Source: Bacteroidales bacterium (GTDB lineage Bacteria; Bacteroidota; Bacteroidia; Bacteroidales; UBA932). Taken from it: a stretch of 64,000 nucleotides of DNA. The notes below the pieces were generated by a model, which saw only the letters and a list, made by a program, of their open reading frames with translations, made no database searches and was not told the origin of the DNA. The stretch spans positions 13,808 through 77,807 of the forward strand of contig JAGAFU010000028.1 of assembly GCA_017627955.1 (NCBI GenBank). The letters run 5' to 3'. The position numbers and the translations under genes are program-made. This document shows, in pieces, positions 5,457 through 7,675 of this stretch; within the stretch, counting starts at the first letter, position 1; every line of letters starts with the position of its first letter.

Positions 5457-7675
5457 TGGTGTTGTTCCACAGCAGGCGGAACCGGGTGTATTGGAAAGCT
5501 TGCAAAGAGGTGCAAACAGAAGGAAACATAACTGACATTCAACAAATCCCAATGGGATCTCCTCGCTTCAGGAGGCAAGTCGAGACTTTTCTTTCGGCTA
5601 ACGCTCTCCGTCTGGAGTCCGTTGAGGATTATTTTTGTATCCTTCGGGAGGATGGCTCCATCGCGGCTGGGGCCGGTCTGTCTGGCGATCTCATCAAATG
5701 TGTTGCGGTTGATTCTGCCGAGAGATCAAGGGGGCTTCTTGCTCCGCTTCTATCTCATGTGATCGCATACGCTTCCGGGAAGGGTATTCCCAATCTCAAA
5801 GTATTCACGAAACCGGAGAACGAGGCTGTCTTCACAAGCCTTGGTTTCCACACGATCGCTCGCGCGCCTCAGGCGATCCTTCTTGAGAACGGCCATGGCC
5901 TCGAGGGCTATCTCGCCTCTTTTGATGTTGCCAAAATTGCCGTCTCCAAAATTGCCGGCCAGCCGATCGAGCCCGGCCGCGTCCATTCTCGCGACGCTTC
6001 GCTCGCTGCGGCTGAGTACGGCCTAAGCTCGACGGCTGTTCCGGCTGGTGTGACTTGTCATCCTGAGTGCGGCGAAGGATCTGTTGGCGTGATAATCATG
6101 AACGCCAATCCGTTCACTCTGGGGCATAAGTATCTGGTGGAGAAAGCCTCGGGGCAGGTGGACAAGCTGTTTGTGATTCCAGTCAAGGAGGACTTGTCGT
6201 TGTTCCCATATTCAGAAAGGCTTGAGATGATCAGGTCTGGCTGCGAGGGTTTGGCGACCGTTCTGGACGGCTCTGACTATCAGATTTCGGCCGCGACTTT
6301 CCCGACATATTTCCTTAAAGATCTTTCTGAAGCCTCTGAAACCCAGATGCTTCTGGATCTTGATCTCTTTGGCCGCCGGATCGCTCCCGCTCTTGGAGCG
6401 ACAGTCCGTTTTGTCGGCTCTGAGCCTACTGATCCTCTTACGGCCCGTTATAACGAGCTGATGAAGGAAGTCCTTCCGACCTTCGGCATCTCTGTCGTTG
6501 AGATTCCGAGACTGGAGTTCTCTGAGGTTGCCGTCGGGCTTAGGCCGCACTCAGCCGCAGCGGAGCGAGAATGGACGCGGCCGGGCTCGGGCGGCAACCT
6601 CGCTGTCCCGAAGAAGGCGACTGCTGTGGCAATCCGAGCTTCGGATGTGCGCGAGGCCCTGAAAGAAGGCAACTTCCGCACGGCCGCTGCCCTGACGCCC
6701 CCTTCGACCTGGCCATATTTGGTCGCCGAGCTGATGGCGAGGGCTCTCAGGATGGAGCTCGACACTCCTCTCAAGCCGGGACTTGTTGACAGGGATAGCA
6801 ACGGTGCCCACTCCGACATGGACTACACCCTCATGAGCGGAAGCATCGAAGTGATCCGCCGCTCCTTCATCCGACACCTGCCAATGCTTTTGCGCCAGAG
6901 GTCCTCCGGCGTTAAGGAGTGGAAATTAGTAGTTGAGTTCGGGAAGGCGATAGAGGCGGATGTCATGGAATATACCGGGGGAGTGAACACCTACCGCGGT
7001 GCGATCTTCGCCCTTGGTCTCGCCGCCCTCGCTCATTTTTCCGTGATTTGTAATTTATTTAATATCAATCATTCACAAGATAGCCTTCCTATCGAAAGTA
7101 GGGGAAGGCTTGTTGATAAACATCTGGAGGATAGGCAGTTGGAAATCACGGCGGCTATTTCATGCCTGGCTGAAGCTATTACTCCTACAGAGGATTCCCA
7201 TGGGGGAAAGGCTGTGAGCGAGCATGGCGTGACAGGTGCCTTGCGGATGGCTCAGGAAGGCTACAAGCCGCTGTTTGAGGATTGGCTGCCGTTTTATCGT
7301 TGCTCTGAGTCGGCCGCTGGTGCTGCCGGGCTTAGGCCGTACTCAGCCGCAGCGAGCGAAGCGAAGCGAGAATGGACGCGGCCGGGCCCGGACAGCACCG
7401 CGGCCCTTCGACTTCGCTCAGGGACCACTGCGGCTGAGCCTCTTCAGAAAACGCTGCTGAAGATAATGTCAACCTTGGACGACACCTGCGTTATCCATAG
7501 GGTTGGATACGAACGAGCCCAGGAAGTGAAGAACGAGGCGGAAGCTCTGTTGGATAATTTCAGCGAAGAAGGATTGAGAGAAATGAAAAAGCGCTACGAT
7601 GCGGAAGGGATCTCCCCTGGAGGAGCCGCCGACATGCTGGCGCTCACCATACTGATAGATTCATTAACTAATTAA
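5456..7675 (+). CDS. citC/citG: Fused [citrate lyase] ligase CitC and triphosphoribosyl-dephospho-CoA synthase CitG, with four in-frame insertions; true start probably downstream of 5456
   Basis: CitC motifs IKCVAV, MNANPFTLGH, SAATFPTYF and RFVGSEP, followed by CitG motifs PKPGLVD...NGAHSDMD, NTYRGAIF, DDTCVIHR and ISPGGAADMLA in one uninterrupted frame. Confidence 0.9.
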   Translation: MVLFHSRRNRVYWKACKEVQTEGNITDIQQIPMGSPRFRRQVETFLSANALRLESVEDYFCILREDGSIAAGAGLSGDLIKCVAVDSAERSRGLLAPLLSHVIAYASGKGIPNLKVFTKPENEAVFTSLGFHTIARAPQAILLENGHGLEGYLASFDVAKIAVSKIAGQPIEPGRVHSRDASLAAAEYGLSSTAVPAGVTCHPECGEGSVGVIIMNANPFTLGHKYLVEKASGQVDKLFVIPVKEDLSLFPYSERLEMIRSGCEGLATVLDGSDYQISAATFPTYFLKDLSEASETQMLLDLDLFGRRIAPALGATVRFVGSEPTDPLTARYNELMKEVLPTFGISVVEIPRLEFSEVAVGLRPHSAAAEREWTRPGSGGNLAVPKKATAVAIRASDVREALKEGNFRTAAALTPPSTWPYLVAELMARALRMELDTPLKPGLVDRDSNGAHSDMDYTLMSGSIEVIRRSFIRHLPMLLRQRSSGVKEWKLVVEFGKAIEADVMEYTGGVNTYRGAIFALGLAALAHFSVICNLFNINHSQDSLPIESRGRLVDKHLEDRQLEITAAISCLAEAITPTEDSHGGKAVSEHGVTGALRMAQEGYKPLFEDWLPFYRCSESAAGAAGLRPYSAAASEAKREWTRPGPDSTAALRLRSGTTAAEPLQKTLLKIMSTLDDTCVIHRVGYERAQEVKNEAEALLDNFSEEGLREMKKRYDAEGISPGGAADMLALTILIDSLTN
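5954..6045 (-). repeat. Family C long hairpin element, copy 1 (reverse orientation), inside the CitC region
   Basis: 69-bp core 5968-6036 is the reverse complement of 7322-7390 at 63/69. Flanking stem GCCGG-C-CAGCCG-A-TCGAGC / GCTCGA-CGGCTG-TT-CCGGC. Confidence 0.9.
6056..6082 (+). repeat. Family A repeat inside the CitC region (encodes CHPECGEGS)
   Basis: TGTCATCCTGAGTGCGGCGAAGGATCT; same reading frame as the citX copy. Confidence 0.85.
6525..6600 (+). repeat. Family C long hairpin element, copy 2, inside the CitC region
   Basis: 60-bp core 6530-6589, 9 nt shorter than copies 1 and 3. Closing stem AGGTTGCCG / CGGCAACCT. Encodes GLRPHSAAAEREWTRPG. Confidence 0.9.
7043..7110. other. AT-rich imperfect palindrome plus terminator-like hairpin, read through in frame within the CitG region
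   Basis: GTGATTTG...CAATCATTCAC followed by AGCCTTCC-N13-GGAAGGCT (7082-7110); sharp drop in GC relative to flanking codons. Confidence 0.55.
7312..7405 (+). repeat. Family C long hairpin element, copy 3, inside the CitG region
   Basis: 69-bp core 7322-7390. Closing stem GGCCGC-T-GGTGCTG-CCGGGC / GCCCGG-A-CAGCACC-GCGGCC. Encodes GLRPYSAAASEAKREWTRPG. Confidence 0.9.
7402..7426 (-). repeat. Family B short palindromic repeat abutting family C copy 3
   Basis: GGCCCTTCGACTTCGCTCAGGGACC. Its reverse complement GGTCCCTGAGCGAAGTCGAAGGGCC resembles 59868-59891 and shares CCTGAGC...CGAAGG with family A. Confidence 0.8.

Follow-up and report, generated by a model that had tools for sequence, protein, structure and literature searches.

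Palindromic repeats that lie in frame inside protein-coding genes have been described in Rickettsia. The Rickettsia palindromic elements (RPEs; Ogata et al. 2000/2002) are multi-copy palindromes of ~100 nt found in frame in unrelated housekeeping and metabolic genes and, according to PMC10969869 and PMC3733652, they are translated as an extra peptide of a host protein that is apparently functional, with no transposase, terminal inverted repeat (TIR) or target-site duplication recognised. Some repetitive extragenic palindromes (REPs) are also intragenic, sometimes at the same site in related species (PMC3733652), and Bacteroides carries intragenic invertons, such as a 57-bp example in BT0375, that recode a protein without a frameshift (Chanin et al., PMC10028968). 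Here we report on family C, a hairpin-forming repeat with three copies inside the citC-citG fusion gene of a Bacteroidales bacterium, in a stretch of 64,000 nucleotides (positions 13,808 to 77,807 of contig JAGAFU010000028.1, assembly GCA_017627955.1; hereafter the window). We consider it likely that family C is a non-autonomous, RPE-like selfish element of uncultured rumen Bacteroidales that is kept where it is harmless. Full-text literature searches turned up no account of palindromic repeats lying in frame in Bacteroidales genes, and the citC-citG case appears to be one good instance of a wider, apparently unpublished pattern.

Like the RPEs, family C consists of in-frame palindromes of ~100 nt in unrelated genes, with no transposase or TIR recognised. 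The likeness is a functional analogy only, with no sequence relationship known or expected, and it has its limits: the host is a free-living gut anaerobe and not an obligate intracellular bacterium, the element has a conserved asymmetric apex on a stem that is free in sequence and covaries, its copies flip in place, and the same linkers are contested by several unrelated hairpin families. With the intragenic invertons of Bacteroides, which also belongs to the Bacteroidales, family C shares a short intragenic segment between inverted repeats, found in both orientations with the frame kept. Unlike them it is a dispersed repeat with a common apex and not a unique locus, no invertase is implicated, and its orientations were seen between strains and species and not within one population. 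As in the systems of REPs, REPINs (REP doublets) and REP-associated tyrosine transposases (RAYTs), the GC-rich hairpins are probably recognised as folded single strands, but a GTAG/CGTC tag is missing, the apex and not the arms is conserved, and the Y1/RAYT-like genes of these genomes have no family C beside them and do not track the element in their presence. Classical miniature inverted-repeat transposable elements resemble family C in being small, non-coding, multi-copy and patchily present among relatives; however, family C termini are unconserved save for CCGG, and no target-site duplication or related insertion sequence was found.

Three copies of family C in the citC-citG gene

The citC-citG open reading frame (ORF; 5456..7675, + strand) encodes a GNAT-like N-terminal domain, a citrate lyase ligase and a triphosphoribosyl-dephospho-CoA synthase. 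An earlier note on this DNA had claimed three copies of one repeat in this gene, and a repeat finder returned their cores at 5968-6036 (- strand), 6530-6589 (+) and 7322-7390 (+), copy 2 being split into two halves (6530-6562 and 6556-6596). The identity claimed for copies 1 and 3 was recovered as a 69-nt inverted pair (5968-6036 / 7322-7390) that is 91% complementary (63/69), and so was the 9-nt shortfall of copy 2, which reads GCAGCGGAGCGAGAATGG where copy 3 reads GCAGCGAGCGAAGCGAAGCGAGAATGG, within the GCGAAGCG centre. The peptides proposed in the note agree with the conceptual translations GLRPHSAAAEREWTRPG, GLRPYSAAASEAKREWTRPG and PGRVHSRDASLAAAEYGLS, the last of which comes from copy 1. 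The note had also held that each copy is closed by a different complementary stem. Every core is indeed closed by a stem of its own, but these stems are diverged versions of one family consensus, CCGGAGCAGCC(G)TCGRGC ... GCYCGAGCGGCTGTCCGG.

Each core sits at the apex of a predicted hairpin of 80-100 nt. Copy 1 (5954..6045, - strand; core 5968-6036) is of the 47-nt apex type and forms part of the linker that joins the GNAT-like domain to the ligase; its arms are near the family consensus, and its hairpin (5954-6045) reaches -51.9 kcal/mol (z -3.6 vs shuffles). The linker between the CitC and CitG domains holds copy 2 (6524..6601, + strand; core 6530-6589), which is of the 38-nt apex type, with a hairpin (6524-6601) of -49.7 kcal/mol (z -2.0 vs shuffles) and an outer stem, GAGGTTGCC/GGCAACCTC, that is diverged from the consensus and still complementary. 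Copy 3 (7312..7403, + strand; core 7322-7390), again with a 47-nt apex, falls in a CitG loop; its hairpin (7312-7403) has -62.8 kcal/mol (z -4.4 vs shuffles) and its arms, GCTGGTGCTGCCGGGC/GCCCGGACAGCACC, are locus-specific. A covariance model built from 63 other family C copies, with the three citC-citG copies excluded, scored these at 78-83 bits (78 for copy 1, 83 for copy 2 and 80 for copy 3; E about 1e-25), and its other matches in the 64-kb window were just two weak ones, of 15.2 and 11.7 bits (E 0.014 and 0.24). The weaker of the two is at 30539-30645 on the - strand. A permissive Rfam scan of 5000-8000 gave a chance microRNA match only. We rejected an assembly artefact, because the copies recur across many independent assemblies and in RNA contigs.

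Comparison with orthologues showed that the inserts are true insertions. At DNA level, the closest orthologues, in the relatives G043 and G056, lack a segment of 129 nt (43 codons; ~5921..6049) that consists of copy 1 and about 33 nt beside it; within these lies the direct repeat CCAAAATTGCCG, at 5931-5942 and 5946-5957.

Distribution and reading frames of family C

The source metagenome-assembled genome (MAG; 2.58 Mb, 60 contigs) holds 12 family C copies, all 12 of them inside long ORFs. Nine other host genes were named by Pfam matches, for GH31, methionyl-tRNA synthetase (MetRS), GH2, GH3, GH95, DnaG, a ComEA-like protein, TldD and a transglutaminase-like protein. Their inserts lie mostly between Pfam domains, and two of the carriers, MetRS and DnaG, are essential. 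An exact 20-mer of the apex occurs in at least 116 further stretches, nearly all of them in RUG/RGIG rumen Bacteroidales MAGs, with cattle, buffalo, goat, deer, yak and reindeer as the hosts of the positive MAGs; four matches in other phyla were taken as chance. These yielded more than 110 further family C copies in more than 20 rumen Bacteroidales MAGs. By BLAST, none of 24 sampled genomes of the same GTDB genus holds the element, and its distribution is therefore patchy.

ORFs of at least 150 aa contain 102 of 118 copies. Three frames account for most of them: R1 in 47 copies (peptide PGRVHSRFAAAEYGLS, PGRVHSR..AAAEYGLS), F1 in 26 (GLRPYSAAAKREWTRPG, GLRPYSAAA..REWTRPG) and F2 in 16 (LGRTQPQRSENGRG), with few copies in other frames, as variants that have lost stops. 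The predicted peptide types are GLRPYSAAASEAK, EWTRPGPDSTAALR and VHSRDASLAAAEYGLSSTAVPAGVTCHPECGEGSVGVIIMNANPFTLGHK. Family C is thus a dispersed, multi-copy palindrome of roughly 100 nt (median hairpin 88 nt), with copies inside coding genes whose frame is unbroken, at permissive positions and in host genes under selection, as in the RPE class.

A conserved apex on a covarying stem

The element measures about 88 nt, and up to about 125 nt where parts are nested or duplicated. Its 38-nt apex is non-palindromic (GGCCGTACTCAGCCGCAGCG-N-AGCGAGRATGGACKCGGCC), centred on a GCG-N-AGC mini-hairpin, and almost invariant, although this apparent conservation is inflated by the fact that copies outside this genome were ascertained by an intact 20-mer. 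In an alignment of 63 equal-length copies the invariant part reads GGCCGTACTCAGCCGCAGCG-N-AGCGAG-R-ATGGAC-K-CGGCC, and in the variable arms beside it the recurring positions are limited to CCGG..GCC... The stem of about 24 bp that closes the apex varies in sequence and keeps its pairing, with a median of -49.2 kcal/mol for a copy's own arms vs -33.3 kcal/mol when they are paired with arms of other copies, and by sequence the outer arms of 111 copies group into 45 clusters. Changes occurred on both sides in 20 of 26 pairs, and the covariation score was 0.379 vs 0.149 in shuffles, none of 500 reaching it, and 0.07-0.18 in slid controls. In a test for strand-specific folding, G-T pairs outnumber A-C mismatches by 147 vs 42, mostly at three conserved wobble columns, and by 50 vs 34 when these columns are left out.

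Of the 86 copies with a 38-nt apex, 60 have A as the free central base N, 21 have G and 4 have T, as a GCG-N-AGC mini-hairpin would permit. GNA loops of the d(GCGAAGC) type form DNA mini-hairpins of unusual stability. The apex comes in length classes of 38 nt (86 copies), 47 nt (6), 59 nt (3) and 62 nt (13), which all differ by multiples of 3. Since the 38-nt class is the commonest, the 60-nt core of copy 2 represents the common form and the 69-nt cores of copies 1 and 3 the rarer +9 form. In the 62-nt class a small CCCTGAGC..GAAGGG hairpin is nested within the apex. A mini-hairpin of 21-24 nt (CCCTGAGCGGAGTCGAAGGG) is nested exactly in the apex at two loci of this genome (G000), C41:35193-35279 and C41:89090-89168, and in 13-16 of 111 copies elsewhere; in a conspecific strain it stands alone at the MetRS site, instead of family C.

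Ages of the copies and occupancy of their sites

None of the three copies is present in same-genus orthologues (577-624 aa). Of 70 database homologues, 43 carry a family C copy at site 3 (35 forward, 8 reverse), 6 carry one at site 2 and 3 carry one at site 1. The three nearest relatives, G043, G046 and G056 (synonymous divergence, dS, about 0.48), do not have copy 1; the anchors around site 1 enclose 231 nt here vs 102 nt in the closest relatives, and neither arm of copy 1 is present in orthologues with an empty site. Copy 2 is common to G043 and G046, where a 69-nt in-frame deletion has left the left arm and 20 apex bases. It is also polymorphic among conspecific strains. In three other metagenomes (runs X5, X7 and X13; all our read evidence consists of assembled contigs) a joint 6515/6638 was found, with the segment 6516..6637 (+ strand) replaced by the 29 nt TTTTCGGTGGYGACAACTCCTCYGTCWCC, a net loss of 93 nt that keeps the frame, and this allele fits a recorded protein of 676 aa (P0003, 92% identical). 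Copy 3 shares its position and its locus-specific arms with copies in G046, G043, G041, G053, G045 and G044, out to dS >1.2, and between these orthologous arms there are compensated substitutions (A-T to T-A, T-A to C-G). Judged by these comparisons, the three copies differ in age, copy 3 being the oldest.

Other hairpin families were found at the same three sites in relatives, and the MetRS linker contains, depending on the strain, family C, a second family or the mini-hairpin. The second family has a like architecture, with a conserved apex (CGCTTYGCGCCCTATCCGGGWAAATG) and copy-specific stems, and uses the same linker sites in relatives: citCG site 2 (L149, in G056), citCG site 3 (L157, in G054) and the MetRS linker (L209, L212 and L232). 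The sites are hot spots, either through a scarcity of permissive protein positions or through an attraction of new hairpins to existing ones. The repeated local insertion envisaged in the earlier note was not borne out, as the copies differ in their arms and in age (43/6/3 of 70) and other families use the same sites. From occupancy, arms and rival families together, the clustering is better ascribed to few permissive linkers, possibly with hairpin attraction, than to local copying. Nor did the assembled metagenome contigs give any evidence for the folding or inversion between copies 1 and 2 that had been suggested. Deletion or inversion among copies 1-3 was likewise dismissed, the sole joint, 5992/7403, being explained by copies elsewhere with a nested small hairpin.

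Selection on the host gene and predicted structure of its product

Pfam matches in the ORF cover residues 211-359 (Citrate_ly_lig) and 424-734 (CitG). The gene start is probably the called one at 5552 (M33), which gives 707 aa, and a recorded protein of this length that starts at M33 (P0002) is identical to the citC-citG product over its length. A search of PDB sequences with the protein gave no match. That selection maintains an intact protein, as the earlier note had argued, is supported by strong purifying selection, with ratios of nonsynonymous to synonymous divergence (dN/dS) of 0.09-0.13 over the 510 codons outside the inserts that are present in all orthologues, in comparison with eight relatives. 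Metatranscriptome contigs of two runs continue from the citC coding sequence into and across copy 1; joints removing copy 1 were not found in them, at low depth and with DNA carry-over possible.

The AlphaFold model of the protein has a predicted template modelling score of 0.77 and a predicted local distance difference test (pLDDT) of at least 70 for 516 of 707 residues. In six segments the pLDDT is <50. The four long ones, in the numbering of the 707-aa protein, are residues 127-175, with copy 1 and the short repeat beside it, 327-357, which correspond to copy 2, 502-522, encoded by an AT-rich stretch specific to this genome (7040-7140), and 588-625, with copy 3 and its own neighbouring short repeat. 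The low pLDDT at the inserts therefore predicts that they are disordered linker or loop material, and in the model they are placed in two interdomain linkers and one CitG loop. Taken together, the sequence comparisons indicate that citC-citG is intact and under selection despite about 120 extra residues.

Inversion in place and decay

We compared orthologous pairs of copies from different genomes in which both flanks are homologous, and found 63 co-oriented and 62 opposite, with the arms staying in place. In MetRS the copy is forward in this genome and in G054, but G046, G053, G041 and G044 have it reversed between the same unusual arms, and the DnaG copy is inverted in the conspecific main strain of run X19. 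These pairs show that a copy can flip in place, inverting within its own arms, which accounts for both orientations more simply than separate insertions would. Inversion in silico between paired positions converts R1 into F1 peptides, and it keeps the ORF open for 21 of 21 symmetric crossovers in copy 1, 12 of 32 in copy 2 and 22 of 39 in copy 3. Flipping between the arms explains the dominance of F1 and R1. As in intragenic invertons, intragenic inverted repeats surround a segment that is seen in both orientations (62 of 125 pairs flipped). Contigs of run X1, the metagenome in which the genome is best represented, contained no opposite-strand joints at the three citC-citG copies at a threshold of 10%.

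The arms drift. At orthologous sites they are 63-69% identical where the flanks are 75% identical, compared with 47-55% between unrelated copies; they diverge at about the rate of the coding flanks and retain their complementarity, and compensated stem changes also separate orthologous copies. Decay by deletion is seen in the GH2 copy of G043, which has lost 72 nt while this genome, G056 and G046 retain the full copy, and in MetRS of G043 and G045, where one arm is retained. One-arm remnants hold apex bases or nest in clades with filled members (G043 GH2; G043/G045 MetRS; G043/G046 citCG site 2). In-frame tandem duplications of arms are found at L079, L084, L049 and L058, and at citCG site 3 in G041, G043, G044, G046 and G053, repeating every ~24 nt on the right side and every ~42 nt on the left, and encode repeated peptides of the PDGTADKT- or AGAAGLRQCTDV-type.

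Search for a mobilising factor

A Y1/RAYT transposase was rejected as the mobiliser, since PF01797 matches 12 of the 24 genomes without the element and 13 of the 22 that bear it, and the RAYT-like gene of this genome has another, terminator-like repeat on its flanks and not family C. Among 123 apex matches there was no long autonomous version with an ORF between half-apexes. Conserved TIRs matching an autonomous insertion sequence were not found (45 arm clusters among 111 copies), and the family alignment has no GTAG or CGTC tag at the palindrome end, the consensus ending in CCGG. Comparison of filled and empty sites, at site 1 and in the transglutaminase-like gene, revealed no direct repeats flanking the hairpin, with flanks too diverged for base-level certainty. 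Orientation showed no bias with respect to the replication strand (49 vs 51 by local GC skew).

Other repeats in citC-citG, its neighbourhood and its genome

Short palindromic repeats stand next to two of the copies. One, beside copy 1 (6056-6084; TGTCATCCTGAGTGCGGCGAAGGATCTGT), is kept in most orthologues (V.CHPER.EGS), and the other, beside copy 3 (7402-7426; GCCCTTCGACTTCGCTCAGGGACC, peptide ALRLRSG), is missing from the orthologue in G045. The AT-rich part of citG at 7040-7140 was found in this genome only, encodes the peptide HFSVICNLFNINHSQDSLPIESRG.. and includes a small palindrome, AGCCTTCC..GGAAGGCT. The same-genus orthologue L014 (G010) has AT-rich perfect hairpins at 2500-2552 and 3435-3485, both in frame, one at site 2 and one close to the C-terminus, with the sequences TCAGAGGAAAATT..AATTTTCCTCTGA and GAAGAAAAATGGTTTTTCGCAAAGCCTTGCGAAAAATATTTTTCTTC.

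The gene belongs to a citEF-citX-citCG-aconitase-family cluster. Its neighbour citX (4774-5418) also holds in-frame repeats, namely a long hairpin at 5128-5210, which the family C model matches weakly (15 bits), and, 3′ of it, a short repeat, TGTCATCCTGA..GAAGGATC, at 5233-5261; the Pfam CitX match is split into two stretches. Elsewhere in the genome there are at least 12 copies of a terminator-like hairpin repeat, AAAACGCGTAGCYAAATAAGCTACGCGTTTT, including C45:1200-1248, C45:2397-2457 and at least 10 other contigs, and two of its copies are near a RAYT-like (Y1 HUH) gene at C45:156-1112.

Discussion

As an RPE-like selfish element, family C would land or persist in genes where it is read in a stop-free frame, mostly F1 or R1, and the persisting copies would also be confined to interdomain linkers or surface loops, as 20-35 disordered residues by predicted translation. 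citC-citG has received three insertions of different ages, in two linkers and one CitG loop, with the enzyme remaining under purifying selection. After insertion, inversion between a copy's own arms can swap F1 and R1 peptides without shifting the frame, the apex can change in length by +9, +21 or +24 nt, all multiples of three, and gain smaller hairpins, and in-frame deletion can lead to decay that leaves one arm. Spread may depend on recognition of the folded single strand, with its conserved apex, by a trans-acting enzyme or in the course of replication or repair, and the pairing of the stem may be kept by the requirement for a folded strand or by arm-to-arm correction within the palindrome.

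Several of our results weigh against this explanation. There is no enrichment in coding sequence, as 86% of the copies are in ORFs of at least 150 aa vs 92% of random positions at the same loci, and family C is therefore not drawn to genes but simply not kept out of them. The 18 apex bases that were not part of the search sequence are ~96% identical at all flank distances, even where the flanks are ~75% identical, and an apex haplotype is common to 18 of 36 orthologous pairs vs 18% of random pairs. Apex variants are thus inherited with their locus and not overwritten from other copies, and conservation of the apex in place looks like selection, which is unexpected for a purely selfish, dead copy. 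Moreover, the genomes compared revealed no mobilising enzyme, autonomous relative, conserved TIR or target-site duplication, so that mobility is deduced solely from distribution and presence/absence polymorphism.

The conservation of the apex in place, the one finding left unexplained by a purely selfish model, leaves room for an alternative in which the copies are programmed intragenic invertons, serving the host or a dedicated recombinase, with the apex as recognition site and flipping as a switch between linker or loop peptides. We regard this as rather unlikely, even though the orientation of orthologous copies is effectively random (62 vs 63) and differs between conspecific strains, F1 and R1 can be read through in both orientations, apex and stem pairing persist in place as the sequence of the stem drifts, and small recoding intragenic inversions are documented in Bacteroides (PMC10028968). 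Against it stand the missing opposite-strand joints at the three citC-citG copies in contigs of run X1 at the 10% threshold, the position of the inserts in disordered linkers, where it is not obvious what function a choice of two peptides would have, the deletion of copies in close relatives with no sign of cost, the presence of about a dozen copies per genome in unrelated genes, and the fact that no invertase is linked to family C. A broader proposal, to which we likewise give little weight, is that family C and the sister families at its sites form an unrecognised class of structured DNA, whose apex would be the handle for a dedicated recombinase or a single-strand-specific enzyme that both spreads and flips them.

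It is doubtful, to a greater degree, that the outer stems were copied in inverted form from the flanking target by fold-back or template switching, at insertion or later, which would give each copy a different stem. Such copying would fit three alleles: the transglutaminase-like gene of G052, which lacks the element and still holds one arm (GGCACGCCG), the 29-nt conspecific allele of citCG site 2, whose sequence agrees with the left arm of another hairpin family found in G056, and GACGGCAATCTCGCC in G045 at the place of the right arm of copy 2. However, the same 18-nt arms recur in unrelated genes (GH95, ComEA-like, citC and MetRS), so the arms travel with the element, and where polarity is readable the one-arm alleles are deletion products (G043 GH2, G043 MetRS, G043/G046 citCG site 2); for these two reasons we rank it low. 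In addition, variant arms retain the family length and the conserved CCGG..GCC.. positions, as divergence predicts, and empty site 1 orthologues have neither arm. Local duplication or gene conversion within citC-citG, in place of independent arrivals, is very improbable. It would account for the fact that copies 1 and 3 are 63/69 identical and both have the 47-nt apex, which is rarer (6 of 111 copies elsewhere), but their arms are wholly different, those of copy 1 being like the family consensus and the MetRS copy, and site occupancy is 43, 6 and 3 of 70 for sites 3, 2 and 1. The 47-nt type makes up 4 of the 12 copies in this genome, so other sources were available, and other families occupy the same sites in relatives.

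In-frame palindromic elements have so far been treated as a curiosity of Rickettsia, and the same behaviour is met here in abundant free-living gut anaerobes, with features that are unreported for RPEs: a conserved apex, covarying stems, frequent inversion in place and several families competing for linkers. The insertions provide a natural map of permissive sites in enzymes. They are also a source of protein-length variation that inflates and confuses the annotation and clustering of MAGs, and assemblies break at every copy. Family C may connect selfish hairpin repeats with the intragenic invertons of Bacteroides. If these hairpins did turn out to be a class handled by such a dedicated enzyme, essential genes of rumen Bacteroidales would contain programmable switches that recode their products and are maintained by selection, not just tolerated.

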